From Armatimonadota bacterium (GTDB lineage Bacteria; Armatimonadota; Zipacnadia; Zipacnadales; VGFC01), in the NCBI GenBank assembly GCA_016869045.1, contig VGFC01000001.1, forward strand, positions 34,518-98,517: a stretch of DNA of 64,000 nt, given 5' to 3'. Every line of letters starts with the position of its first letter. The stretch's first letter is position 1. Below the pieces are notes generated by a model, which did no database searches, had not been told where the DNA came from, and worked only from the letters and a program-made list of their open reading frames with translations. The position numbers and the translations under genes were made by a program. Positions 3,822-48,946 of the stretch are shown in pieces.

Positions 3822-6173
3822 TTGCGCATCGTCCTTAGCCTCGCTCTGGTCGCCGTTGTCCCCGCCGTCTGCGGCGCGGCCCCCTCCACCATCGTCCGCT
3901 TCGACTTCGAGGAGCCGACAACCGACTGGTTTGTCTCGGAGAACGACCCGAACACCTCCGGCGTCGCCGTCGTCCCGATGGCGGCTCCGAGCGGCCAGCA
4001 GGCGCTCGGGCTGACCGGCACCTTCCCGGGGTCGCTCGGCGTCAGTTACACCCCCTGGCAGGACTGGCGGCCATTCACCACGCTGAAAGTGTGGGTTCAG
4101 GTTCCCAAGGGCGCGCCCAAGGACATCGGAATCTACGCCTACCTCAAGGACCGCCAGTACCTCTGGTACCAGACCGGCCTCTTCCGCGATCCCGCGACTG
4201 ACAAGCCAACTCAGCCCCTCAAGCCCGGCGTGTGGATGTCCACCACCGTCGATCTGTCGCCCGGGTCCAAGGCCTGGAAGGCTGGCGGGCACGAGAAGTC
4301 CTGGTACCGTACCCTCTTCTACCCCCGCGAGTTTGGGATCCGCTTCTTCTCCAAGACCGCCTGGCAGGGCACCGTCTACATCGACGACATCTGCCTGATC
4401 GCTCCCGGAACGCCTCCCAAGCCGCCTACGCTTGCCGCGCTGAAGCCCACGGCCAGCGCGCAGAGCGTGGCGGTGAATGAGAAGCTCGAACTGACCTTCC
4501 CGGTGGACCGGGAGTATGACAACGTCTTCAACCCGCACGAAGTGGACGTGATGGGCCACTTCCGCAGACCCTCCGGCGCCCAGATGGAGGTGCCCGGCTT
4601 CTTCTATCAGGACTATCGGCGCACCCAGGATGAGAAGGGTTTCGAGAAGTTGATCCCCGTCGGCGCGCCAACGTGGAAGGTGCGCTTCGCGGCCGTCGAA
4701 CCCGGCAAGCACGAGTACTACGTCACGCTGAAGGACAATCGTGGCGAGGCGCGGTCACCCGCCGCGACCTTCACGGCCACACCCTCCGCCGACCCGCGGG
4801 GGCGCGTGCGCGTGAGCAAGCAGGACCCACGCTACTTCGAGTTCGAGGATGGCAGCTTCTTCTACCCGCAGGGCATCAACATGCGGGACGGCGGCAACCA
4901 GGCGGCGCAGCAGAAGGGCACCTACGACTTCGACACGTTCTTCCCGGCCTTTCAACAGGCGGGCCTGCAGTATGTACGGACGTGGATGTGCGCCTGGTGG
5001 GCGGGCATCGAGTGGACGGACAAGTACGACTCTCGCTACGACAACCTTGGCCGCTACTGCATGTACAACGCCTGGCGGATGGACCACGCGCTCGACCTGG
5101 CCGAACAGGACGACCTGTTCATCGAGCTGACCCTGAACTCCCACGGTCAGCTTCGCCGCGACAAGTTCGATGCCGAGTGGGAGTACAACCCCTACGCGGC
5201 GGCCAACGGCGGTCCGTGTGCAACGCCGTCGCTGATCTGGACCAATCCGACCGCCAAGGAGATGTTCCGGCGCCGGTACCGCTACATCGTCGCGCGTTGG
5301 GGTTACAGTCAACACATCATGTCATGGGACTTGTGGAACGAGATTGACCTGATCGATGCGTACGGGCAGCTCAGTCCCGACGTCGCCGCGTGGCATGCCG
5401 AGATGTCGAAGTACCTGCGCGACATCGACCCCTGGGAGCGCCTGATCACTACACACTACTGCTTGCACTTCATGTGGGATGCGGGCCGGTCCCTCTGGGC
5501 GGTGCCGGACATCGACTACCTGCAGGCCGACGCCTACTGGCCCCAGAAGGAGATCGGCGACGACGTCAGCCGCGCCTACGGGTTGCGGGCGGACATCGCC
5601 AAGCCCTACATGCTGATCGAGTTCGGGCCCCAGACGTCGCAGATCCCCAGCCTCAGCCGCAGCCAGATCGAGGGCTACTTCCGCATCGGCCTGTGGACGA
5701 GCGCAGTCACGCCGATGGCCGCCCCTGCCCACTTCTGGTACAACGACATCTGGCTGCGCGACAGCTACGCGCACCACCATGCGACACTCGCGAAGTTCCT
5801 GGGCAACGAGGACCGGCGCGGTGAGGGTTGGACGTGGATCAACCCCGACCCCAAGCAGAACGCCGCTGCGCCCACTACCTCGCCGCCCGAGCTGTTCGTT
5901 CACGCGATGAAGTCGCCGAAAGCCACGTACTTCTACGTGCTCAATCTCGACCGCATGCTCGCGGGGGAGGTCGGCCGCAAGCTTCCGCCCATTCAGGGCG
6001 CGGCCGTCAGCTTCCAGGGCCTCCCGGACGGCCAGTACGAGGTCGAGTTCTGGGACCCCTACGTGGGCGAGATCGTGGCGACCGCCATTGTCGCGGTCCA
6101 AGGCGGCCGCATCCAGGTCCCCCTCCCCGACTTCCTCTCCGACCTCGCCTGCAAGCTGCGCCTCACCGCCTAG
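3822..6173 (+). CDS. secreted glycoside hydrolase, clan GH-A (GH5-like catalytic domain after an N-terminal beta-sandwich domain)
   Basis: TTG start with GGTGAGG upstream. Signal peptide MRIVLSLALVAVVPAVCGAAP. The WDLWNEIDL motif (NE acid/base) is characteristic of GH5-type TIM-barrel hydrolases. Confidence 0.55.
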   Translation: MRIVLSLALVAVVPAVCGAAPSTIVRFDFEEPTTDWFVSENDPNTSGVAVVPMAAPSGQQALGLTGTFPGSLGVSYTPWQDWRPFTTLKVWVQVPKGAPKDIGIYAYLKDRQYLWYQTGLFRDPATDKPTQPLKPGVWMSTTVDLSPGSKAWKAGGHEKSWYRTLFYPREFGIRFFSKTAWQGTVYIDDICLIAPGTPPKPPTLAALKPTASAQSVAVNEKLELTFPVDREYDNVFNPHEVDVMGHFRRPSGAQMEVPGFFYQDYRRTQDEKGFEKLIPVGAPTWKVRFAAVEPGKHEYYVTLKDNRGEARSPAATFTATPSADPRGRVRVSKQDPRYFEFEDGSFFYPQGINMRDGGNQAAQQKGTYDFDTFFPAFQQAGLQYVRTWMCAWWAGIEWTDKYDSRYDNLGRYCMYNAWRMDHALDLAEQDDLFIELTLNSHGQLRRDKFDAEWEYNPYAAANGGPCATPSLIWTNPTAKEMFRRRYRYIVARWGYSQHIMSWDLWNEIDLIDAYGQLSPDVAAWHAEMSKYLRDIDPWERLITTHYCLHFMWDAGRSLWAVPDIDYLQADAYWPQKEIGDDVSRAYGLRADIAKPYMLIEFGPQTSQIPSLSRSQIEGYFRIGLWTSAVTPMAAPAHFWYNDIWLRDSYAHHHATLAKFLGNEDRRGEGWTWINPDPKQNAAAPTTSPPELFVHAMKSPKATYFYVLNLDRMLAGEVGRKLPPIQGAAVSFQGLPDGQYEVEFWDPYVGEIVATAIVAVQGGRIQVPLPDFLSDLACKLRLTA

Positions 6174-6284: not shown

Positions 6285-7397
6285 GTGTTTTCTTCGCGGT
6301 ACTTCCGGCGGGCCGACTTCGTGCTGCTCGGCGCGGCGTTGGCGCTGGTGGCGATCGGCTGCCTGATGATCTTCAGCTGCACCCGCACGGGGCTCGGCGG
6401 CAGCACAACCGCACAGTGGGCTCAGGTGAAGATGCAGCTGATCTGGGTTGCGCTGGGGCTCATCGTCTTGTTGGTCACGATGGGCTTCGACTACACGCGA
6501 CTGACCAGCCTGCACCTACCCCTGTACGCGGGGGCCCTGCTGCTGCTGGCGGTCGTCCTGCTCATGCCGGCGGTGCGGGGCGTGCACCGCTGGATCATTC
6601 TCGGGCCGCTCCGTCTGCAGCCGTCGGAACTGGCGCAGATCGCGCTGCTCGTTACGGTCGCTTGCGTCGCCAGCGCCCGCGAGCAGGTCCACGACTTCCT
6701 GGCCGTCAGCAAGACGTTCCTGTGGCTTGTCCCGGCCATCGGGTTGATCCTCAAGCAGCCCGACCTGGGCACCCCGATCGTAATCCTCGCCACCTGGTTC
6801 GTCGTCATGCTCTTCGCCGGCGCCCGCTGGAGCCATCTGGGCGGCTATGTGGCGGCCCTCCTGCTGCTCTTCTCGGCCGCCTGGTTCTCGGGCGCCATCA
6901 AGGACTACCAGAAGGAGCGCCTGCTGGTCTTCCTGCATCCCGAAAGAGACCCGATGGGTGACGGCTACCAGCCCATGAACGCCTTGACCGCGGTCGGCAA
7001 CGGGGGCTTCTTCGGGCGCGGGTTGTTCAAGGGGCCCCAGACCGGCGGCAACTTCGTTCCGGACCAACACACTGACTTCATCTTCACCGCCGTTGCTGAG
7101 GAGTTCGGCTTCGTCGGTGCGATGGTCGTGCTCGTGCTGTTCGGCGTGCTTCTCTGGAGATGTACCGTGGCCATCATCGAGGCCAAGGACCCGCTCGGCC
7201 GCCTGATCGCTGCGGGAGTCACTGCGGTAATCGGTCTCCATGTCGTCGTGAACATCGCGATGACGGTGAGCCTCGCGCCGGTCAAAGGCATGCCCCTGCC
7301 CCTTGTGAGTTACGGAGGGAGCAGCATGTTGGCGACGATGCTCGCGATCGGCCTGGTCGAGAACGTCTACATGCGCCGCCACAAGATCGCCTTCTGA
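6285..7397 (+). CDS. rodA: SEDS-family peptidoglycan glycosyltransferase RodA/FtsW
   Basis: GTG at 6285 with GGAGG 8 nt upstream, downstream of a TGcTATAAT box. Polytopic membrane protein. Conserved C-terminal block GMPLPLVSYGGSSMLATMLAIGLVENVYMRR. Confidence 0.8.
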   Translation: MFSSRYFRRADFVLLGAALALVAIGCLMIFSCTRTGLGGSTTAQWAQVKMQLIWVALGLIVLLVTMGFDYTRLTSLHLPLYAGALLLLAVVLLMPAVRGVHRWIILGPLRLQPSELAQIALLVTVACVASAREQVHDFLAVSKTFLWLVPAIGLILKQPDLGTPIVILATWFVVMLFAGARWSHLGGYVAALLLLFSAAWFSGAIKDYQKERLLVFLHPERDPMGDGYQPMNALTAVGNGGFFGRGLFKGPQTGGNFVPDQHTDFIFTAVAEEFGFVGAMVVLVLFGVLLWRCTVAIIEAKDPLGRLIAAGVTAVIGLHVVVNIAMTVSLAPVKGMPLPLVSYGGSSMLATMLAIGLVENVYMRRHKIAF

Positions 7398-8588: not shown

Positions 8589-8640
8589 GTAGGGGCGCGA
8601 TTCATCGCGCCCATGTGTAGGGGCGCCATTCATGGCGCCC
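8589..8640 (+). repeat. REP-like doublet (GTAGGGGCGCGATTCATCGCGCCC + GTAGGGGCGCCATTCATGGCGCCC)
   Basis: Two 24-nt GTAG-initiated palindromic units in direct orientation, 8589-8612 and 8617-8640. The C/G swap between units is compensatory and keeps the hairpin. Confidence 0.9.
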
Positions 8641-20428: not shown

Positions 20429-21086
20429 GGAACGGGTCCTTCCACGGCGAGACGACCTCGCCGATGACGGATTGCAGCTGCTCCAACGTAATCGCCCCCT
20501 GGCGCAGCAGGCGCGGAGGGGACTTGGTGAGGTCGATGACGGTCGAGGGTACCCCGCTCGCCGGGACTTCCAGGTCGATGAGCACGTCCAGCCAGGGCCC
20601 GAGTGTGCGGAGCACGTCCTCGGCGCTGATCGTGCTCTCCTCACCAGACAGGTTCGCGCTCGTGACAGCCATCGGGCCCGACATCTCCGACAGAAGCACC
20701 CTAGCCAGCATCAGGTCCGGCTCGCGGACGCCGACCGTGTCGCCTCCGGCGACCGCCTCGGGGCAGATCCGGTTGGAGCGAGGCACGACAATGGTCAAGG
20801 CTCCCGGCCAGAACTCCCTGGCGAGTGCCAGCGCGGCATCCGGAGGCGCGGGCGGAGGGCAGCACTGAAGGAGACCGGTCGGGCCTCCGGTCAGCACGGG
20901 CAGGGGTTTCGTGGGGGGGCGGCGTTTGGCCTCGAAGAGACGGAGGACCGCCTCCGGGTTGCCGGCGTCACAGCCGACGCCATAGACCGTATCCGTAGGG
21001 AACGCGATCAGGCCGCCGCGCTCGAAGGCCTTCCGGCAGACCTCCTGCTCGGCGTCCGAGAGATAGACCACGCTCCCGGGCCGCAT
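20418..21086 (-). CDS. tsaC: L-threonylcarbamoyladenylate synthase (TsaC/YrdC/Sua5 family)
   Basis: Start MRPGSVVYLSDAEQEV... Conserved motifs KAFERGGLIAFPTDTVYGVGCDA and TSANLSGE. Confidence 0.75.
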   Translation of the reverse strand: MRPGSVVYLSDAEQEVCRKAFERGGLIAFPTDTVYGVGCDAGNPEAVLRLFEAKRRPPTKPLPVLTGGPTGLLQCCPPPAPPDAALALAREFWPGALTIVVPRSNRICPEAVAGGDTVGVREPDLMLARVLLSEMSGPMAVTSANLSGEESTISAEDVLRTLGPWLDVLIDLEVPASGVPSTVIDLTKSPPRLLRQGAITLEQLQSVIGEVVSPWKDPFLEL

Positions 21087-21105
21087 GATGATCGGCCCGC
21101 CGCTT

Positions 21106-22296
21106 TCACCGGGACTGTGCGATGACGACTCGGTCGATGCCACTGAGGTCCTTCAGGATGCGAGTGTCGAAGGTCGGCCAGGCGGTTGCGCACAGGTCCC
21201 GGACAGTTGCCGCCTGTCCGAGGCCGACCTCCAACGCGACCAGACGCACGTTCGGGAGGTACCGCGCGCATTCCGGGATCAGCCGCTCGTAGACGCCCGT
21301 CCCGGCCTCCCCCTCGCCCAGCCACGCAGGCTTCGGCTCGTGCGCGGCGACCTCGGGAGGCAACGCAGCCACGTCCCGCAGAGCCACGTAGGGCGGGTTC
21401 GACACCACGCACGTGATCTCCTCGGTGAGGCCTGCGGCGAGGACGGGGTCGAGGTCCGGGCCTTCAGCAAACCGGACGCGGTCGGGGAGGCCGAGCGCCT
21501 CGGCGTTCTCGCGCGCAAGGGCCAAGGCGTCTGACGAGATGTCCGTGAGGATGACCCGAGCCTCGGGTAGGAGTGCGGCAAGGGAAAGGCCGATGGCGCC
21601 GGTGCCAGCGCCGAGGTCGAGGATGGCCGTTGTGGGGGCGGACCCATGATTGTGTTGACAAAGGCGGTGTCGGGATTGGCATCCCGACCTACGAGCCACG
21701 TAGACGGTGTAGGAAGAGTGCTTCTCCTCGACGGAGTGGTTTCCCAACAAAATCCCATGTGTTCGCCCATGTCCGGCCGTTGTAGGGGCGGACACGTGAT
21801 TGTGTTGAGAAAGGCAGTGTCGGGACTGGAATCCCGACCTACGAGACACGTGCGGCCCGCAGGAGAGGCGTCCTTCCTCGACAGAGCCCTTCTTCAACAC
21901 AATCCCGTGCGTCCGCCCCGGCCCGGCCGAGGAGGGGCGGACACGTGGGTCCGCCCCTACAACGGCATTGACCAAGACCTCGGTCTCGGGGCGGGGGACG
22001 AGGGCGCGTTCGTCGCAGCGAAAGCGGAGCCCCATGAACTCGGTGTAGCCGGTCACGTAGGCGAGGGGGCGGCGAGAGGCGCGTTCGGCAGCGAGGGCCG
22101 AGAAACGGGCACGAACGGCTGTGTCCAGAGGGCTGCGCAGGAGCAGGTCGAGGCGCGTCAGGGGGACGTCGAGTGCGTGAGCGAGGAGGATGCGGGCGTC
22201 CGTGAGGGGGCTGTCCACTCCCGCGGCCTGGAGTCGGGCGACGGCCTCGTTCAGGGCATCGCGCACCGACGGGGCGTGGGTCATTGCCGTCACCAC
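21106..22296 (-). CDS. prmC: release-factor glutamine N5-methyltransferase PrmC/HemK carrying a ~110-codon in-frame insertion of palindromic MITE-like elements
   Basis: ILDLGAGTGAIGLSLA (motif I) and VVSNPPYV (NPPY) are intact, and the gene is immediately downstream of prfA. The region 21633-21960 between the N-domain and MTase domain is two tandem ~140-bp TIR-bounded elements, read through without stops. Confidence 0.8.
   Translation of the reverse strand: MVTAMTHAPSVRDALNEAVARLQAAGVDSPLTDARILLAHALDVPLTRLDLLLRSPLDTAVRARFSALAAERASRRPLAYVTGYTEFMGLRFRCDERALVPRPETEVLVNAVVGADPRVRPSSAGPGRTHGIVLKKGSVEEGRLSCGPHVSRRSGFQSRHCLSQHNHVSAPTTAGHGRTHGILLGNHSVEEKHSSYTVYVARRSGCQSRHRLCQHNHGSAPTTAILDLGAGTGAIGLSLAALLPEARVILTDISSDALALARENAEALGLPDRVRFAEGPDLDPVLAAGLTEEITCVVSNPPYVALRDVAALPPEVAAHEPKPAWLGEGEAGTGVYERLIPECARYLPNVRLVALEVGLGQAATVRDLCATAWPTFDTRILKDLSGIDRVVIAQSR
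21633..21960. mobile_element. two tandem MITE-like elements (~138 bp each, TIR GGGGCGGAC(C/A)C(A/G)TG(A)TTGTGTTGA...) plus a 30-bp solo palindrome, inserted in-frame in prmC
   Basis: Element 1 is ~21633-21770, element 2 ~21783-21919, each with terminal inverted repeats and an internal hairpin (gtcgggaYtggMatcccgac). A solo palindrome ggaggggcggacacgtgggtccgcccctac lies at 21931-21960. Confidence 0.75.
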
Positions 22297-22324
22297 CAGA
22301 TCGCGATCCGCGATACCAAGCCCA

Positions 22325-22378
22325 GGGCGCCATGAATGGCGCCCCTACACGGTCGGGCGCGATGAATCGCGCCCCTAC
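22325..22378 (-). repeat. REP-like doublet (reverse orientation)
   Basis: gggcgccatgaatggcgcccctac at 22325-22348 and gggcgcgatgaatcgcgcccctac at 22355-22378, between prmC and prfA. Confidence 0.9.
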
Positions 22379-22414
22379 GTGGGGACGGCTGGGACGGGAA
22401 CCGCGGGTTCCCAT

Positions 22415-23509
22415 TCAGCGGGCGGTCGAGTCGCCGACGGCGGCCTCGGCGAGCCGGCGCTCGTAGTCGGCCTTGGCCAGCGCGTCCAGCAGTTCGTCGA
22501 TGTTCCCCTGCAGGAGCGAGGGCAGGTTGTGCAGCGTCAGGCCGATCCGATGGTCCGTCAACCGATCCTGCGGCCAGTTGTAGGTTCGAAGCTTGTCGGA
22601 GCGGTCGCCGGACTTGACGTGCTGGCGGCGGGCAGCGGCCTCCTCCTCGCGGCGGGTCGCGAGCTGCAGGTCCAGGAGCTTGGAGCGAAGGATGCGGAAG
22701 GCCTGCTCGCGGTTCTGGTGCTGAGAGCGCTCGTTCTGGCAGGAGACGACGAGGCCGCTGGGCTTGTGGCGGACGCGGACGGCAGTGTCGTTCTTCTGGA
22801 CGTGCTGGCCGCCGGCGCCGGAGGCGCCGAAGGTCTGCACTTCGCAGTCGGCGGGATCGATCCGGACATCGACCTCCTCGGCCTCGGGGAGGACGGCGAC
22901 CGTCGCGGCCGAGGTGTGGATGCGCCCCTGGGACTCCGTGACCGGCACGCGCTGGACGCGGTGCACGCCGCTCTCGCTCTTCAGCCGGCCGTAGGCGCCC
23001 TTGCCATTGACCGCCAGGACGACCTCCTTGTAGCCGCCCATGCCGCTGGGGCTGCTGTCGAGCACCTCCGGCTTCCACCTCATCCGCTCGGCATAGGCGC
23101 TGTACATGCCGAGCAGGTCGGCCGCGAAAAGCGCCGCTTCCTCGCCGCCCGTGCCCGCGCGAATCTCGACGATGCAGTGCTTCTCATCGGCCTCGTCCTT
23201 GGGCACGAGGATGGCGAGCACGGCGGCCTCGGCGGTCTGGGCGCGCTGTTGGGCGCTCTCAAGCTCCTCCTGGTAGAACTCGCGCTCCTCGTCGTCGGCG
23301 GCGTCCGCCAGGCCCTTCTCAGCCTCCTCGGCGTCGGCGAGAGCCGCCCGGTAGGCGCGGACGTGCTCGACCGCCGTCGCCAACTCCGAGTGGCGGATGC
23401 TCGTGTCACGGAAGAGGTGCTGGTCGCCAATGACGGCCGGATCGGCCAGCCGGCGCTCCAGCTCGTGGTACTCCTCCTCAATGGCATCCAGGGCGGCGAC
23501 GTCGATCAA
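22415..23509 (-). CDS. prfA: peptide chain release factor 1
   Basis: GGQ motif in TFGASGAGGQHVQKNDTAVR. Conserved RF1 domains. Classic prfA-prmC gene order. Confidence 0.9.
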   Translation of the reverse strand: MIDVAALDAIEEEYHELERRLADPAVIGDQHLFRDTSIRHSELATAVEHVRAYRAALADAEEAEKGLADAADDEEREFYQEELESAQQRAQTAEAAVLAILVPKDEADEKHCIVEIRAGTGGEEAALFAADLLGMYSAYAERMRWKPEVLDSSPSGMGGYKEVVLAVNGKGAYGRLKSESGVHRVQRVPVTESQGRIHTSAATVAVLPEAEEVDVRIDPADCEVQTFGASGAGGQHVQKNDTAVRVRHKPSGLVVSCQNERSQHQNREQAFRILRSKLLDLQLATRREEEAAARRQHVKSGDRSDKLRTYNWPQDRLTDHRIGLTLHNLPSLLQGNIDELLDALAKADYERRLAEAAVGDSTAR

Positions 23510-23623: not shown

Positions 23624-23757
23624 GGGCGTGATGAATCACGCCCCTACACTCGGGCACGATGAATCGTGCCCCTACACAACGGCGATTTACGGTCGTTTGT
23701 GACGTAGGGGCGCGATTCATCGCGCCCAGTCATGTAGGGGCGCCATTCATGGCGCCC
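23624..23757. repeat. REP-like quartet: two reverse-orientation units followed by two forward units (REPIN-like inverted arrangement)
   Basis: Units at 23624-23647(-), 23652-23675(-), 23704-23727(+), 23734-23757(+). The first two are sequence variants (gggcgtgatgaatcacgcccctac, gggcacgatgaatcgtgcccctac) with compensatory changes. Confidence 0.85.
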
Positions 23758-26897: not shown

Positions 26898-27581
26898 ATG
26901 GCGCAGCAACGTATCGCAGCACTCAACGACCGCGACCTCGTCCTGTGCGACTTCGACGGCACCGTCAGCGCGGAGGACACGGGCCTGCTCGTAGCCCGGG
27001 AGCTTCGGCTGGAGCGGTTCTTCGAGATCGAGGAGCGTTGGCGGCGGGGGGAGATCTCGTCGCGGGAGTGCCTCCGCGACCAGTGGCGGACCGTCGATCC
27101 GTCGCGGGCGGACTTCCGCGAGTTGATCGCGAACCTGGAAGTGAACCCGGGCTTCGAGGAACTCGTGGCGCTGACGGGGGTTCGGGGCGCGAGGCTGGTG
27201 ATCCTGAGCGATGGGCTGGACTACTACATCCGGATGACGTTGGAGCGGCTGGGGCTGGAACGTCTCGAGTACCGCGCGAACCATGCCGTGCTGCACGAGC
27301 ACCATGTCGAGCTGCAGTTCCCCTGCCCTGCGGACGCGTGCGACTTCTGCGGCAACTGCAAGACGCTGTGGCTGTTCGAGCTGAGGCCGGGGTTCGAGCG
27401 GCTGATCTACCTGGGAGACGGGATCTCGGACGGCTGCGCCTCGAGGTACTGCGATGTCGTGTTCGCGAAGGACCTGTTGGCGGGAATCTGCCGCGAGCGG
27501 GGTCAGGAGTTCGTGCCGTTCGAGACGCTCGAGGACGTCGTGCCGGTACTGCGGGACGGGAGTGTGCTTCGGGCGCGATGA
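26898..27581 (+). CDS. HAD-IB family phosphatase (MtnX-like)
   Basis: LVLCDFDGTVS (DxDGT) and LGDGISD motifs, plus CxxC pair CDFCGNC. The stop codon TGA lies inside a REP unit at 27571-27594. An alternative ATG exists at 26862. Confidence 0.6.
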   Translation: MAQQRIAALNDRDLVLCDFDGTVSAEDTGLLVARELRLERFFEIEERWRRGEISSRECLRDQWRTVDPSRADFRELIANLEVNPGFEELVALTGVRGARLVILSDGLDYYIRMTLERLGLERLEYRANHAVLHEHHVELQFPCPADACDFCGNCKTLWLFELRPGFERLIYLGDGISDGCASRYCDVVFAKDLLAGICRERGQEFVPFETLEDVVPVLRDGSVLRAR

Positions 27582-27624
27582 ATCGCGCCCCTACATGACC
27601 GGGCGCCATGAATGGCGCCCCTAC
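27571..27624 (-). repeat. REP-like doublet overlapping the 3' end of the HAD gene
   Basis: gggcgcgatgaatcgcgcccctac at 27571-27594 and gggcgccatgaatggcgcccctac at 27601-27624. The first unit encodes the last codons and the stop of the HAD CDS. Confidence 0.9.
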
Positions 27625-28710: not shown

Positions 28711-31587
28711 ATGTCTCACCAGAGCATCCCCCGCCCTGAGCATCCCCGACCCGACTGGCAGCGCGGGAGCCGGGAGGGGCGCGATTGGATCAACCTCAAC
28801 GGGGTCTGGGAGTTCGACTTCGACCCGGAGGGCGTCGGCTGGGCTGAGGGCTGGCACGTGCCGCCGGGGAGACAGGTCCCCGGTGGGGTGTTCATGCTGC
28901 CCGGCGGGTTCGACCCAGCGGGCGTCGGCCGGAGCGAGGGGTGGGATGGGGGCCATGTCTACAGCAAGCGGATTGTCGTGCCCTTCGGGTGGGAGAGCCA
29001 CCTGGCGTGGGGCGGCGGAGAGCGGGCGAGCAATGAGGACTACTTCAGCCCGCAGGCCTTCATCGAGCCGGAGAAGGTGAGCCTGGAGAACTACCGCGAG
29101 GCCAGGCGGCATGAGACGGGGTGGTACCATCGGACCTTCGAGGTTCCGGCGCACTGGCAGAACGAGCGCGTCTACCTGTGCTGCGGGGCCATCGACTACT
29201 TCGCGCAGGTGTGGGTGAACGGGGCGCTGGTCGTGGCCGCGCTCAGCGGATACATGCCCTTCGAGGCGGACATCACCGAGCACGTGCAGTTCGGTGAAGA
29301 GAACCACGTGGTCATCCGCGCCCATGACCCGAACGACCACGAGCAGCAGCCGGTCGGGAAGCAGTCCCGCTGGTATGCACGGACCTCGGGCATCTGGCAG
29401 ACCGTGTGGCTGGAGCCCCGGAGCGCGGTGCACCTCGCGAGCGCGCGCTTTGACGCGGATATCGAGACCGGCGAGGTGACCTGTTCGATCCGGCTCAACC
29501 GCCCCCCCGAGGGCGACCTGGGCTTGCGGCTCGCGCTCTCGATGCCGCAGGGCGGCACGGCATACAACACGTGGGGGGCGAAGGCGGTCGCGGGCGCCAT
29601 GAATGGCGCCCCTACACAGTCGGGCGCGATGAATCGCGCCCCTACAGACGGCAGCGGGGCGGAGGCGATGGAGGCCGGCGAGGGCCCGCACACGACGCGC
29701 CTCATCGTCCACGAGCCTCGGCTCTGGTCGCCCGATGATCCGTACCTCTACCAGGTGGACCTGGAGCTGCTGGACGGCTCTGCGACGGTCGATCTGGTGA
29801 GCACCTACTTCGCCTTCCGCGAGGTCGCGATCAAGCCGCTGCCGGGCAAGACCACGCAGTACATCTACCTCAACGGCCGCCCAGTCTACCTCCTCGGCGC
29901 GCTGGACCAGTCGTTCAACCCGTGGGGTGTCTACACGTTCCCGTCGGATGAGGCGATCCGGCGGGACATCGAGCTCGCGCGGGAGGCGGGGTTCAACTTC
30001 CTGCGGATTCACATCAAGGCCGAGGACCCGCGCTTTCTGTACTGGGCGGACCGGCTGGGGATGCTGCTAATGGCAGACCTGCCGAACGTCGGCTACGAGG
30101 CCGCCGACTCAGCGCTGGCGCGGTCGCGCTGGGTGACCAACATGGTCCTGCAGATCAGGAGAGATCGACACCATCCCTCGATCGTCGCCTGGTGCCTGTT
30201 CAACGAGACCTGGGGCCTGGGCGGCAATGCCTACAAGGAGTTACCCGAGCGCCAGGAGTGGGTGCGCTCGAAGGTCGAGATAGCTCGCGATCTCGACCCC
30301 ACGCGGCCCATCGAGGACAACTCGGCCTGCCTGTATGACCACGTGGAGACGGACATCAACTCCTGGCACTTCTACCTCAACGACTACGCAGCGGCGAAGG
30401 CGCACATCGCGGAGGTGGTCGAGAAGACGTACCCGGGCTCGGGCTTCAACTACTGTCCGGGCTTCACGCAGAACCGCGAGCCGCTGCTGAACAGCGAGTA
30501 CGGCGGCATCTCGGCGCGAATGGGCGACCTGGATGTGTCCTGGTGCTTCCACTTCCTGACGAACGAGCTGCGGCTGCATGAGAAGATCTGCGGGTACGTC
30601 TACACCGAGCTGCAGGACATCGAGTGGGAGCGCAACGGGGTCTACAACTACGACCGCACGCCGAAGGAGTTCGGGTACGACATCCGAGAGCTGAACCGGC
30701 CCGACTTTCTCGCACTCGACGCGCCGCCGTGTCAGGTCGTGAGGCCCGGCGAGGAGGTCGTCGTCCCCGCCGTCTCCTCGCACTTCGGCCCCTTCGTCGG
30801 CGACCACGCGACGCTGGGCTGGAAGCTGGAACTGCTGGACCACACGGGCCGAATCGAGGAGTTCACCGGCTCGACGCGGCGGGTCCCGTTCCCGCGCTTC
30901 GCGGTGACGCCTGCGGGCAAGCTCGCCGTGCGGATGCCGGACTGCCCTGGGCTGGCGACGCTGCACGCGTGGCTGCAGACCGCAGACGGCGATCCCATCG
31001 CACGGAACTGGGTGCACTTCCACGTCGCGGACGAGGGCGTACATCCCGAAGGCATCGCACCGGTCTCGCTCGCGAGCTTCACGGGTGAGGGGATGCAGTG
31101 CTTCGAGGTCGAGGGGGTTCGGGAGGCGGTGTGGGTCGAAGGCGCGGGAGTGCTGTCTGCGAAATTGGGGACAGGCACCATTTTCCGAGACAACGCCCCT
31201 CGGAAAATGGTGCCTGTCCCCAGTTTCGCCCTCGTAGCGGAGCTCTCCTCGTGTCGGCCGGGCGGAGGAGGGAAGCAGACGGACGCGGAGACATGGCCGT
31301 CGCGAGTGCGCGTCTCGCTTGCGGGCGTCGAGCTGGGCTTGGTCGATCTGCCTGACCATCCGGCCGACAGCCGGGGCGTGCTGAGTCACCACTACGGGTT
31401 CGCGGGACGATACGGGGAGCTGGTTACGCTGCGCGTTCCGGCCGAGCGGGTCGGCGAAGCGCTCGACGCCCTGCGCGGCGGCGCGGAGCTGCGCTTCGAG
31501 GTGGACACGGACCTTCCGGGCGGGCTGAGCGTCTATGGTAGCAGGTCGGGCCGTTACCCAACAGGCCCGTACCTCCTGTTCCGTTGA
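28711..31587 (+). CDS. glycoside hydrolase family 2-like protein with two in-frame palindromic insertions
   Basis: GH2 sugar-binding-domain-like block WYHRTFEVPAHWQNERVYLCCGAIDYFAQVWVNG and TIM-barrel region. A REP doublet at 29592-29645 encodes AGAMNGAPTQSGAMNRAPT. A 71-bp palindrome at 31159-31229 encodes SAKLGTGTIFRDNAPRKMVPVPSFA. Confidence 0.6.
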   Translation: MSHQSIPRPEHPRPDWQRGSREGRDWINLNGVWEFDFDPEGVGWAEGWHVPPGRQVPGGVFMLPGGFDPAGVGRSEGWDGGHVYSKRIVVPFGWESHLAWGGGERASNEDYFSPQAFIEPEKVSLENYREARRHETGWYHRTFEVPAHWQNERVYLCCGAIDYFAQVWVNGALVVAALSGYMPFEADITEHVQFGEENHVVIRAHDPNDHEQQPVGKQSRWYARTSGIWQTVWLEPRSAVHLASARFDADIETGEVTCSIRLNRPPEGDLGLRLALSMPQGGTAYNTWGAKAVAGAMNGAPTQSGAMNRAPTDGSGAEAMEAGEGPHTTRLIVHEPRLWSPDDPYLYQVDLELLDGSATVDLVSTYFAFREVAIKPLPGKTTQYIYLNGRPVYLLGALDQSFNPWGVYTFPSDEAIRRDIELAREAGFNFLRIHIKAEDPRFLYWADRLGMLLMADLPNVGYEAADSALARSRWVTNMVLQIRRDRHHPSIVAWCLFNETWGLGGNAYKELPERQEWVRSKVEIARDLDPTRPIEDNSACLYDHVETDINSWHFYLNDYAAAKAHIAEVVEKTYPGSGFNYCPGFTQNREPLLNSEYGGISARMGDLDVSWCFHFLTNELRLHEKICGYVYTELQDIEWERNGVYNYDRTPKEFGYDIRELNRPDFLALDAPPCQVVRPGEEVVVPAVSSHFGPFVGDHATLGWKLELLDHTGRIEEFTGSTRRVPFPRFAVTPAGKLAVRMPDCPGLATLHAWLQTADGDPIARNWVHFHVADEGVHPEGIAPVSLASFTGEGMQCFEVEGVREAVWVEGAGVLSAKLGTGTIFRDNAPRKMVPVPSFALVAELSSCRPGGGGKQTDAETWPSRVRVSLAGVELGLVDLPDHPADSRGVLSHHYGFAGRYGELVTLRVPAERVGEALDALRGGAELRFEVDTDLPGGLSVYGSRSGRYPTGPYLLFR
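29592..29645 (-). repeat. REP-like doublet inside the GH2 coding sequence (in-frame)
   Basis: Units at 29592-29615 and 29622-29645. The reading frame is maintained across the insertion. Confidence 0.9.
31159..31229. repeat. 71-bp near-perfect palindrome (31-bp arms) inside the GH2 CDS
   Basis: gcgaaattggggacaggcaccattttccgag / ctcggaaaatggtgcctgtccccagtttcgc with an 11-nt loop. One arm mismatch. Confidence 0.85.
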
Positions 31588-44394: not shown

Positions 44395-44412
44395 GGGAGC
44401 CCCCTTGCCGTT

Positions 44413-44442
44413 GTAGGGGCGGACCCACGTGTCCGCCCCTAC
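44413..44442. repeat. solo 30-bp palindrome of the MITE/TIR family (gtaggggcggacccacgtgtccgcccctac)
   Basis: Perfect palindrome identical in type to the element termini in prmC. Lies between the ABC ATPase stop and the permease start. Confidence 0.8.
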
Positions 44443-44462
44443 AACGACACGCGCCATACGCA

Positions 44463-48892: not shown

Positions 48893-48946
48893 GGGCGCCA
48901 TGAATGGCGCCCCTACATGATCGGGCGCGATGAATCGCGCCCCTAC
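48893..48946 (-). repeat. REP-like doublet
   Basis: Units at 48893-48916 and 48923-48946, between the Cof hydrolase and ADH genes. Confidence 0.9.

Follow-up and report, generated by a model that had tools for sequence, protein, structure and literature searches.

Families of GTAG-type REPs, REPINs and RAYT-associated REPtrons were reportedly described by Nunvar in 2010 and by Bertels and Rainey in 2011, and REPs are the targets of IS1397-type insertion sequences. A REP is defined as a palindrome of 20-40 bp with a stem of 5-13 bp and a loop of 2-20 nt (PMC3733652). Di Nocera et al. (2013) described intragenic GTAG REPs, REP heads that give rise to TAG stop codons, and REPtrons, in which RAYT genes have flanking REPs (PMC3733652). 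Intragenic GTAG and CGTC REPs were found in Opitutus terrae, Thauera, Xanthomonas and other species, with reported inserts of 20-30 aa and clusters of 43-82 aa (PMC3733652); the main text of that study does not contain the term hemK, and the study does not cover the phylum Armatimonadota. Several Rickettsia palindromic elements (RPEs) are of the CGTC type and have no dedicated transposase (PMC3733652). RPEs have colonised dozens of genes per genome (PMC10969869, PMC3733652).

The locus analysed here lies in the prmC (hemK) gene within a 64,000-nucleotide stretch of Armatimonadota DNA (the window). It resembles the GTAG REPs, REPINs and REPtrons in its GTAG head beside a GC-rich hairpin, its co-resident subfamilies with compensatory stems, its inverted doublets with a short spacer, its clusters of units, the use of a REP head as a TAG stop and, on contig L010, a RAYT gene between cognate REPs. 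In contrast to those systems, its main units are 138 bp long and have a structured module of ~105 bp in place of a 2-20-nt loop, the cluster is intragenic and in frame, and mobilisation of the prmC elements by RAYT is a proposal. Intragenic REPs likewise occur as singles, dimers and clusters in frame within genes for known proteins (PMC3733652); unlike those cases, the host gene is prmC and 114 aa are REP-derived, ~100 of them in excess. In E. coli, BIMEs are similarly mosaic arrays of REP variants and spacers (PMC3733652).

The sequence-only reading of this DNA had proposed that the locus mirrors the RPEs. The behaviour in frame bears this out: as with the RPEs, palindromic repeats of ~100-150 bp with an intrinsically open frame lie in frame in unrelated housekeeping genes, which they apparently do not destroy. 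The likeness is an analogy of behaviour and probably does not reflect membership of the same family; the host lineage is unrelated, the sequence families appear to be so too, and two genic cases were found here. REP-targeting insertion sequences provide a further parallel, in that other mobile DNA lands on REP hairpins; this could explain how a module came to be nested in the loops of three REP stems. Unlike those insertion sequences and the BIMEs, the module nested here does not code for protein and folds as a hairpin of its own, with another GTAG REP inside it. Either the module may have entered REP loops, or short REPs may have arisen by deletion of the module.

Results

Identity and context of the prmC gene

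The open reading frame that contains the cluster is identified as a PrmC/HemK release-factor glutamine methyltransferase by its domains, motif I, NPPY motif, TIGR03534 score and linkage to prfA (Table 1). In the 396-aa product, Pfam assigned aa 13-83 to PrmC_N and aa 222-306 to the MTS methyltransferase domain. TIGR03534 matched with 202.1 bits (cutoff 199.1), the match being split into two stretches by a gap. The protein was an exact match to MBM3471678.1, which is named PrmC and comes from an Armatimonadota MAG; in the NCBI/JGI calls the gene starts at the ATG at 22284, giving 392 aa. Residues 1-110 comprise the helical N-domain, a beta-hairpin, the PRPETE motif and then a helix, as is ordinary for PrmC. 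In the ortholog alignment D227, G229, G231 and G233 of motif I (DLGAGTGAIG, aa 227-236) were invariant, as were N300, P301, P302 and Y303 of the NPPY motif. The gene order prfA-prmC-sua5 was retained around the insert-bearing gene, and the PCRF and RF-1 Pfam families were found on the identical prfA gene in contig L001. The description of prmC as essential in the sequence-only reading was an assumption; in E. coli K-12 the loss of prmC is severely deleterious, not strictly lethal.

Contigs L001-L003, which were obtained from separate JGI samples and independent metagenome assemblies, were identical to the window across the whole of prmC. Since three independent assemblies gave an identical gene, the insert is not an assembly artefact. 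All of the prmC copies available for this gene were 100% identical; with ~90 kb of the organism's sequence covered, the genome may have a second prmC elsewhere.

Anatomy of the insert

A palindrome-rich segment of 342 bp was located between the PrmC N-terminal and Rossmann domains. It had previously been placed at 21633-21960; the segment was upheld and its limits were slightly refined to 21625-21966. It is bracketed by GCCGTTGT(A/G)GGGGCGGAC and GTCCGCCCCTACAACGGC, and a repeat search detected a 21-nt, 95% inverted repeat (21626-21646 / 21946-21966) that encloses the whole insert. In agreement with the original description, the segment was found to contain two hairpin elements, both of 138 bp, and one solo palindrome of 30 bp. 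The two elements are arranged in a 150-bp tandem and are 79% identical; Tandem Repeats Finder gave a period of 150, 2.2 copies and 79% matches over 21625-21947, with the units head to tail.

Each long REP has the stem of a short REP with a hairpin module of ~105 bp as its loop (~105 nt between the arms). The outer stem of E2 is GGGGCGGAC/GTCCGCCCC and its inner arms are GATTGTGTTGA/TCAACACAATC. E1 has GTGG in place of a GTAG head, and the complementary strand of its right arm has the sequence GGGCGAAC...ATTTTGTTGG; the inner hairpin block of E1 was nearly invariant in an alignment of seven long copies. The short REP P1, with an 11-bp stem and a 2-nt loop, is within canonical short REP dimensions, and its palindrome recurs at 44413-44442 and four times in L010. 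Heads of the form GTAGGGGCGGAC were present at 21782 (+), 21960 (-) and 44413/44442. The layout in prmC is that of an inverted doublet, in which long REPs (+) are followed by a short REP (-) and the GTAG heads point outward.

Table 1. Coordinates of the prmC gene, its repeat elements and nearby features in the window.
Feature	Position	Strand	Basis or remarks
prmC (hemK) CDS	21106..22296	-	396 aa from GTG start; ORF list
Catalytic NPPY motif, aa 300-303	21388..21399	-	intact; read directly in sequence
Strand beta-1 and SAM-binding motif I ILDLGAGTGAIG, aa 225-236	21589..21624	-	intact, directly after insert
REP-derived segment, aa 111-224	21625..21966	.	bracketing inverted repeat; DNA alignment with L004 and L005; linker length; pLDDT
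Long REP E1, 138 bp	21632..21769	+	partly decayed; 79% identical to E2, 83% to intergenic L010_a
E1 inner GTAG hairpin GTAGGTCGGGATGCCAATCCCGAC, second REP type on opposite strand	21669..21692	-	block nearly invariant across seven aligned copies
Long REP E2, 138 bp	21782..21919	+	GTAG head; 87.5% identical to intergenic copy L010 5005-5148
E2 inner GTAG hairpin GTAGGTCGGGATTCCAGTCCCGAC	21819..21842	-	32-nt, 91% match to region at same site of L005 ortholog
Short REP P1 GTAGGGGCGGACCCACGTGTCCGCCCCTCC, 30 bp	21931..21960	-	inverted relative to E1 and E2; encodes VGADPRVRPS
PrmC N-terminal part, aa 1-110	21967..22296	-	ortholog alignment; AlphaFold pLDDT 97-98 for most
Direct doublet of family-A REPs GTAGGGGCGCCATTCATGGCGCCC + GTAGGGGCGCGATTCATCGCGCCC	22325..22378	-	prfA-prmC spacer
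prfA (release factor 1, PrmC substrate)	22415..23509	-	directly upstream of prmC, same orientation; ORF list
Solo short REP, P1 family, GCCGTTGTAGGGGCGGACCCACGTGTCCGCCCCTACAACGAC	44407..44445	.	apparently intergenic

Non-randomness and folding

The 24-nt terminus and the 29-nt inner hairpin had two matches each, compared to 0.00 expected in shuffles, and GTAGGGGCG was counted 18 times compared to 0.72 expected. Across the insert the GC content fell from 0.68-0.73 to 0.57-0.60. When folded as single-stranded DNA, E2 gave -40 kcal/mol (z = -5.6), and the whole insert folded as RNA gave -193 kcal/mol (z = -10).

The stems vary among copies and yet pair (GGGGCGGAC/GTCCGCCCC, GGGGCGCAGC/GCTGCGCCC, GGGGCAGAGC/GCTCTGCCC and GGGGCGGCTC/GAGCCGCCC), and the hairpins are retained through compensatory change. 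These stem variants were read directly, since the outer stems are too divergent for column-by-column alignment; RNAalifold analysis of seven aligned long copies revealed zero pairs with both sides changed. An Rfam E-value scan of 21000-22500 returned no intron and nothing relevant, and a promoter and terminator scan detected no such site within prmC or the insert.

Reading frame and predicted protein product

As had been noted from the sequence, the prmC frame is open through the insert, with no stop codon, and motif I and NPPY are intact. Two of the six frames are open there, and the 150-bp repeat unit is a multiple of three. None of the seven aligned copies had a stop codon in the prmC-type frame, and six of the seven had none in the mirror frame, which lies on the opposite strand; at this GC content an open frame of 50 codons would be expected by chance with a probability of ~0.23, as estimated from base composition.

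AlphaFold gave pLDDT values of 94-98 for both PrmC domains and of less than 50 for residues 123-217, which were without secondary structure. On this model, the ~100 excess residues encoded by the insert are most likely a disordered passenger loop in a surface linker and not a functional domain. The insert is presumably translated, and PrmC activity would be retained despite it. Removal of the insert as an intein or by self-splicing was rejected, since it begins ...NAVVGAD and ends ...APTTA/ILD and so lacks the terminal residues of inteins, which are Cys or Ser at the N-end and His-Asn followed by Cys, Ser or Thr at the C-end, and there was no Rfam intron.

The glutamate racemase gene murI apparently also contains one long-element module in frame; the module is read there in the mirror frame and occurs in two sequence variants. 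A word-indexed protein search with the insert peptide in both open frames matched PrmC and MurI only, and an exhaustive search of 1.84 billion representatives with the peptide in the prmC frame returned only PrmC and P0122. The latter was rejected as a further insert-bearing protein; it is a spurious ORF built of tandem repeats. These protein searches gave no sign of wide protein colonisation, and by this measure the long-element family looks small.

The linker in PrmC orthologs

The linker from PRPETE to DxGxGxG is 120 aa long, compared to 16-29 aa (mostly 16-20) in 21 orthologs. The net excess is ~100 aa, not the ~110 initially proposed, and 114 residues are REP-derived. The segment was absent from P0002 (identity of 82-83% in the aligned columns), from P0003 and P0004 and from ~20 further orthologs, which confirmed that it is an insertion relative to these. 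It lies in the linker between the N-terminal and Rossmann domains, more exactly between the helix after PRPETE and Rossmann strand beta-1. Long inserts in the same loop were also seen in distant PrmC homologs of 365-433 aa.

The two closest orthologs, on L004 and L005, carry different REP variants in frame at the same codons as the prmC insert. At the orthologous site L004 reads GTTGTAGGGGCGCAGCGTGCTGCGCCCAC, and L005 has a REP head and an inner hairpin. A REP-derived prmC linker is found in three lineages with 70-82% aa identity, and the content of the site is wholly different among them. Since the two closest orthologs carry other in-frame REP variants at these codons, the common ancestor probably had a REP-derived linker site, which later underwent expansion or replacement. 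With the site REP-derived in relatives, the order of events that we infer for this linker may have been growth or exchange at an existing intragenic REP, and not a first insertion into a clean linker.

Dispersed copies and linkage to a RAYT gene

A search for other copies of the ~138-bp element, as proposed in the sequence-only reading, covered ~90 kb of sequence and gave eight long copies, which lie at five loci and are spread over three contigs, together with more than 20 short REPs of the superfamily, all presumably from one genome. The resulting copy density is biased upward, since it was the element itself that led to two of these contigs. On L010, an intergenic full copy at 5011-5200 has a long REP, a 21-bp spacer and an inverted short REP, as in prmC; the same contig has a long copy with a different outer stem at 6677-6815 and a plain 75-bp inverted REP doublet at 5535-5609. 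L017 contains four long copies, tandem pairs among them. Short REPs with the same three outer stems occur without the inner module.

The region at 5193-5879 of L010 matched NF047646 (REP-associated tyrosine transposase) with E = 1.2e-15 and 57.7 bits, a score below the curated NCBIfam cutoff of 80; Pfam Y1_Tnp did not match this gene. The product aligned with E. coli TnpA-REP (4er8) over the HUH motif and the catalytic tyrosine, and its homologs are named RayT by JGI; its NCBI accession is MBM3472944.1 (locus-tag prefix FJX75). A short REP (GTAGGGGCGGAC palindromes) is present on both sides of the gene, and the REP head provides its TAG stop codon. By sequence, therefore, L010 carries a cognate RAYT flanked by the same REPs, which is the arrangement that defines a REPtron. 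That the elements share a mobilisation mechanism with the REP family had been a guess, and the occurrence of the same composite beside this RAYT gene strengthened it. No RAYT gene was found within the 64-kb window. The GC content of L010 (68.1%) is equal to that of the window, the same family-A REP doublets occur on both, and the NCBI accessions of PrmC and RAYT, both from an Armatimonadota MAG, are 1,266 apart. From accession proximity and the shared REP families, L010 and the window probably belong to one MAG.

The REP doublet inside the L010 RAYT gene was rejected as a recent in-frame insertion, since alignment with homologs showed it to be conserved in the clade: these RAYTs have a REP doublet within the coding frame itself, and its position is conserved among members from different phyla. 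The 21-bp spacer of this doublet recurs in the L010 intergenic composite, and a remnant of it was found in prmC.

A terminus scan of metagenome contigs gave L010 as the sole real copy, with L012-L014 read only in part; the contig collection is incomplete, as the prmC contigs themselves were absent from the matches. L011 (the same sequence as L015) and L016 were rejected as copies, having no similarity beyond the pattern, and L013 is a Tolypothrix contig that was rejected as a chance match in the GTDB scan. In that scan of GTDB representatives, the terminus-pattern matches in Dokdonella, Flavobacteriales and two Tolypothrix were rejected because there was no similarity beyond the 20 specified bases; four matches are consistent with an estimated chance expectation of ~3, and the GTDB representatives evidently do not include the source genome.

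Discussion

The preferred reading, to which we assign a probability of about 0.72, is that the 342 bp are a GTAG-headed REP cluster, which resembles a REPIN (a hairpin-forming REP doublet) or a BIME (bacterial interspersed mosaic element), belongs to the genome's own REP superfamily, spread in the manner of RAYT-associated elements and resides in the prmC linker. The cluster consists of one short REP (GTAG and GGGGCGGAC, a short loop, and GTCCGCCCC) and two long REPs, in which the same stem encloses the ~105-bp palindromic module; the arms of the module are GATTGTGTTGA / TCAACACAATC, and its opposite strand bears a second GTAG hairpin. The REPs would be spread as single-stranded hairpins by RAYT, a HUH/Y1 transposase, without target-site duplication. 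Persistence in prmC would be favoured by a family that is stop-free in the prmC-type frame and by a 150-bp unit that keeps the frame; the landing site would be a surface linker before beta-1, tolerant of long inserts in other lineages, and selection on a needed gene would retain only in-frame, stop-free events.

Two other explanations concern how the copies arose. The elements were originally called MITE-like, and their size and terminal inverted repeats (arms of ~30 nt in a 138-bp unit) are indeed inside the MITE criterion of 70-300 bp. If they were classical MITEs, the 138-bp units would be deletion derivatives of a DDE insertion sequence, moved in trans by cut-and-paste through their ~30-bp inverted repeats, and their likeness to REPs would be a coincidence. 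In four of five copies the inner module lies between direct repeats of 4-6 nt (CCCATG or CGTG), and an IS4-family transposase adjoins the copies in L017. These direct repeats, however, belong to palindromes (CATG, CACGTG) and vary in length, no target-site duplication was found outside the outer stems, and the ends of the IS4 element (CCAATACTGTTCAC...) are unrelated to those of the repeats; this element (L017 1530-2750) was the only insertion sequence in the sequence examined, and no parent insertion sequence with the element termini was found. Furthermore, the termini consist of a REP stem and GTAG head, the same three stems are found on short REPs that lack the module, and the neighbour of the element is a RAYT gene and not a DDE gene with matching ends. 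An origin as DDE-type MITEs is thus improbable, and the name of long REPs, or REP derivatives, suits the 138-bp units better than that of canonical REPs or DDE-type MITEs. Growth in situ without transposition, in which a resident REP or long REP was enlarged by slippage or unequal recombination and then altered by gene conversion, is rather unlikely and is partly compatible with the preferred reading. It would account for the exact head-to-tail period with 2.2 copies, for a net excess of 100 aa that equals two 150-bp units, for the REP-derived orthologous site of L004 and L005 and for the tandem pairs of L017; it leaves the dispersed copies unexplained. E1 and E2 are only 79% identical, and each is nearer to the intergenic L010_a (83% and 87.5%, respectively) than to the other, so that separate arrivals or conversion fit better than simple local duplication.

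Two further explanations concern what the insert does to its host gene. The gene could be dead, or not translated through the insert, with the open frame a by-product of 68% GC and the function supplied by another methyltransferase gene, by split products, or dispensable. Stop-free frames are common at this GC (~0.23 per 50 codons; two of six frames open) and the RNA of the insert is extremely structured, but the full 396-aa frame is intact with all invariant PrmC residues, TIGR03534 is above its cutoff, the prfA-prmC-sua5 arrangement is kept, the insert is of a length that preserves the frame of the downstream domain and contains no terminator-like or promoter-like site, and the same in-frame behaviour is apparently seen in MurI; a dead or untranslated gene is improbable. 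Less probable still is an exapted function, in which the insert is kept because it acts, either in the protein, by altering localisation or the binding of release factors, or in the mRNA, through a structure that tunes prmC expression or the stability of the prfA-prmC transcript. The persistence of a REP-derived linker in three lineages that are 70-82% identical would suit such a function, as would the very stable RNA fold and the reported action of REPs on mRNA (PMC3733652). Against it, the same sequence is also found between genes and, oppositely oriented, in an unrelated gene; the insert is predicted to be disordered and lacks protein homologs; and the content of the site is wholly different among the three lineages.

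The REP-cluster reading can be extended in three directions, the combination of which is tentative and, taken jointly, on the unlikely side. The ~105-bp module sits in three different REP stems, each of which is also known as a module-free short form, and could be a mobile element in its own right, nested in REPs because it specifically targets the loops of their hairpins. REPs may have encoded the prmC linker since before the three lineages split, with REP subtypes swapped in place and not acquired in a one-off insertion. Finally, the RAYT-internal doublet might be the master copy that seeds the genomic REPINs.

The kind of phenomenon is already known from intragenic GTAG REPs and RPEs, and the prmC case is an unusually large one. 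Selfish palindromic DNA appears to have stretched a conserved enzyme, placing ~100 repeat-encoded residues between the PrmC domains with all catalytic motifs intact. Intragenic GTAG REPs would thereby be extended to the Armatimonadota and beyond the clusters of 43-82 aa reported so far. A REP family whose two strands both have an intrinsically open frame could enter genes in either orientation, as in prmC and apparently in murI. For annotation, the lesson is that a long 'linker' in a MAG protein may turn out to be repeat DNA. Material on the origin and diversification of REPs comes from the nesting seen in the long REPs, from the REP variants that share one orthologous codon position and from the doublet conserved inside the RAYT gene.

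An in-frame REP-derived insertion in prmC

The prmC product carries a PrmC_N domain at aa 13-83 and a small methyltransferase domain starting at aa 222, as determined by Pfam. The TIGR03534 equivalog gave 202.1 bits (cutoff 199.1), with the match split into two stretches by a gap, and alignment to solved PrmC structures gave two blocks (aa 43-111 and aa 224-389). The immediate neighbours of the gene are prfA (RF1) on the upstream side and a Sua5/YrdC gene on the downstream side; NCBI protein MBM3471678.1, labelled PrmC from an Armatimonadota MAG, is the exact product of prmC.

The linker from PRPETE to DxGxGxG was 120 residues long, compared to 16-29 residues (mostly 16-20) in 21 orthologs, and the segment was absent from the closest orthologs, P0002 (82-83% identity over aligned columns), P0003 and P0004 (~70%). 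The sequence-only reading, which had proposed ~330 bp of tandem MITE-like elements in frame in prmC, was thus correct in treating the segment as a true insertion; the excess is indeed large, but amounts to ~100 rather than ~110 residues. Two of the six frames were open across the insert, including that of prmC, and motif I and NPPY were intact, as that reading had stated; so were all invariant family columns in the ortholog alignment. Throughout prmC the window is identical, base for base, to three contigs, each from a different JGI sample, with no stop or frameshift, and the insert is not an artefact. In the AlphaFold model (61-sequence alignment) both PrmC domains had pLDDT values of 94-98; residues 123-217 fell below 50 and were without secondary structure. 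It is presumed that the insert is translated and that PrmC activity is retained.

Tandem Repeats Finder reported a 150-bp period at 21625-21947 (2.2 copies, 79% matches), each unit containing one of the two 138-bp elements, E1 and E2, with the 30-bp palindrome following them. The whole insert is bracketed by a 21-nt, 95% inverted repeat (21626-21646 with 21946-21966). Shuffled sequences gave zero expected matches to either the terminus or the inner-hairpin pattern. Predicted folding energies were -40 kcal/mol (z = -5.6) for E2 as single-stranded DNA and -193 kcal/mol (z = -10) for the whole insert as RNA, and GC content fell from ~0.70 in the flanks to 0.57-0.60 across the insert. This repeat anatomy is not due to chance.

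Coordinates of the prmC insert, related REP elements and associated genes
Feature	Position	Strand	Details
prmC/HemK ORF	window 21106-22296	minus	396 aa
E1	window 21632-21769		138-bp hairpin element; head decayed to GTGG
E2	window 21782-21919		138-bp hairpin element; GTAG head
Outer stem of E1/E2			GGGGCGGAC / GTCCGCCCC
Inner arms of E1/E2			GATTGTGTTGA / TCAACACAATC
Central hairpin of E1/E2		opposite	GTAGGTCGGGAT-N4-ATCCCGAC; itself GTAG-headed
30-bp palindrome after E2	window 21931-21960		minus-strand reading GTAGGGGCGGACCCACGTGTCCGCCCC
Family-A direct doublets	window 8589-8640, 22325-22378 (prfA-prmC spacer), 23624-23757, 27571-27624, 29592-29645, 48893-48946
L010 composite	L010 5011-5148, 5171-5200		long REP, 21-bp spacer, inverted short REP; intergenic
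RAYT gene	L010 5193-5879	minus	immediately adjoins composite
RAYT-internal REP doublet	L010 5490-5609; L019 6280-6412; L020 about 4640-4701	minus (L010 gene)
murI, glutamate racemase P0121	L017 488-1462	plus	~105-bp module at 1196-1298

REP families and the RAYT locus

GTAG-headed REPs abound in the 64-kb window, where GTAGGGGCG was found 18 times compared to 0.7 expected. The majority belong to family A, GTAGGGGCGC(G/C)ATTCAT(C/G)GCGCCC, and form direct doublets with a spacing of 28-30 bp, one of them in the prfA-prmC spacer. Each doublet combines one CGATTCATCG and one CCATTCATGG variant, a direct arrangement less usual for REPs than the inverted one; the four family-A units upstream of prfA include the additional compensatory stem variants CACGAT/ATCGTG and CGTGAT/ATCACG. 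The 30-bp palindrome in prmC represents a second family, B, which recurs at 44407-44445, apparently in an intergenic position.

A pattern scan of metagenome contigs for further copies of the 138-bp element recovered one more complete long element. It lies on the 30.8-kb contig L010, which belongs to the same lake sample series as the window and shares its GC content (68.1%) and family-A doublets. Five loci together yielded eight long copies, of which prmC and L010 hold two each and L017 four. Their inner ~105 bp are 80-88% conserved, and the outer stems vary yet remain complementary (GGGGCGGAC/GTCCGCCCC, GGGGCGCAGC(ACG)/(CGT)GCTGCGCCC and GGGGCAGAGC/GCTCTGCCC). Module-free short REPs built on these exact stems occur at L010 13484 (minus strand), at the prmC site of L004 and as the family-B palindromes. 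There are two readings: the module may insert into the loops of REPs, or long REPs may lose it by deletion and so become short ones. CCCATG and CGTG, short direct repeats that border the module and form parts of palindromes, are compatible with both.

The L010 composite has the layout of the prmC insert, and the gene adjoining it matched the NCBIfam model for REP-associated tyrosine transposases (RAYT) with E = 1.2e-15, under the curated cutoff. Its alignment with E. coli TnpA-REP (4er8) spans the HUH motif and the catalytic tyrosine, and JGI annotates homologs of the gene as RayT. Family-B REPs lie on both sides, one providing the TAG stop; this locus is a REPtron as defined in PMC3733652, which describes both REPtrons and TAG stops supplied by REP heads. 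We infer that the RAYT and prmC come from one genome, since their NCBI accessions, each assigned to an Armatimonadota MAG, are 1,266 numbers apart. Mobilisation of the prmC REPs by this RAYT is likewise inferred.

RAYT genes of this clade also contain a REP doublet in their own coding frame. Its position, following the HUH strand, is conserved, and it encodes VGAD.RVRP ... GA..GAPL/VRPY. Homologs of other phyla, including Chloracidobacterium thermophilum, have it too, and no other GTAGGGGC REPs were found outside the RAYT gene in the L019 and L020 loci (11-13 kb). The 21-bp spacer of the L010 doublet recurs at L010 5149-5169, in the intergenic composite. This doublet might serve as the master from which REPINs are copied. 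In C. thermophilum the RAYT-like gene is placed within a type I restriction-modification operon, with hsdS on one side and hsdR on the other (L019 5174-9731), and lacks flanking REPs, which is an unusual setting for such a transposase.

Origin of the prmC linker

The loop before beta-1 is permissive and has been expanded repeatedly in PrmC, since ~60-150-residue inserts, several of them low-complexity (Ala/Gly/Glu/Pro-rich), are present there in the distant PrmC homologs P0034, P0035, P0037, P0042, P0045 and P0051 (365-433 aa). REP sequence encodes part of the linker, in frame, in both of the closest orthologs, on L004 and L005. The L004 linker, of normal length, contains a complete short REP of a different stem type (312-350; GCT GTT GTA GGG GCG CAG CGT GCT GCG CCC ACG). 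That of L005 (987-1040) has the same head, GTTGTAGGGGCG, followed by CGTAGGTCGGGCTTCCAGCCCGAC, a 32-nt match (91%) to the long element's inner GTAG hairpin, with its orientation unchanged. The REP head was absent from the ordinary linkers of the more distant orthologs P0004, P0005, P0007 and P0011, so the linker probably became REP-derived before the three lineages split and was then rebuilt differently in each. REP content at one prmC codon position varies among these lineages.

The exact 150-bp period of the repeat would be expected if it had grown in situ, a possibility that is retained in part. However, E1 and E2 share 79% identity with each other, compared to 83% and 87.5%, respectively, with an intergenic L010 copy; because each is nearer that copy, separate arrivals or gene conversion are favoured over simple local duplication.

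The elements are hairpins in tandem, as first described, but are better described as long REPs than as MITEs of the classical DDE type. There was no target-site duplication outside the long-element stems, and the sole IS in the sequence examined has ends unrelated to theirs, which argues against such an origin. The proposed link to the REP family was strengthened by the GTAG heads and by the same composite beside the RAYT. Overall, the initial observation was confirmed and its interpretation supported, with these refinements.

Tolerance of the element in coding sequences

None of the seven aligned copies, whether inside a gene or between genes, has a stop in the frame used by prmC (peptide GRTHGIVLKKG...RRSG.QSRHCL.QHN...SAPT), and six of the seven have none in the mirror frame on the other strand. 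Because both strands are open and the 150-bp unit is a multiple of three, insertion in the right phase, in either orientation, would neither stop nor shift the host frame. By our estimate an open 50-codon frame has a chance of ~0.23 per frame at 60-68% GC, so special adaptation need not be assumed.

The glutamate racemase gene murI carries one copy of the module apparently in frame, in mirror orientation to prmC and after profile position 215 of 251, and may be a second coding case in support of in-frame tolerance. Two variants of the insert-bearing MurI (P0121, P0245) differ by three residues outside the insert; the MurI profile did not match the C-terminal tail beyond it. A partial NCBI protein, MBM3477583.1, terminates within the element. 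On the 5.9-kb contig L017 (1463-2917 and 2960-3560) an IS4-family element (ends CCAATACTGTTCAC...) abuts the middle of the inner hairpin of a long element, and the murI 3' end is present three times on the contig, reflecting either duplication of a segment or faulty assembly of repeat-rich sequence. A search of 1.84 billion cluster representatives detected the insert peptide in no further protein; the long-element family appears small and local.

GTAG REP superfamilies have been described, including the coexistence of several families in one genome and the arrangement of REPs in clusters or inverted dimers; within genes for known proteins dimers encode 20-30 aa and clusters 43-82 aa, and REPs in linkers or loops were suggested to be neutral (PMC3733652). 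The prmC cluster shares their head, hairpin, doublet layout and RAYT association, but E1 and E2, as long units, fall outside their size and loop definition. Rickettsia RPEs are the classic in-frame palindromic elements (PMC10969869), and the prmC case is analogous in its in-frame behaviour. Compared to earlier reports, the host phylum, the host gene and the nested long-REP form are new, as is the size: with 114 REP-derived residues, ~100 of them in excess, the insert is an unusually large example of a known phenomenon. The module nested in REP loops and the RAYT-internal REP doublet are the side observations of greatest value for follow-up.
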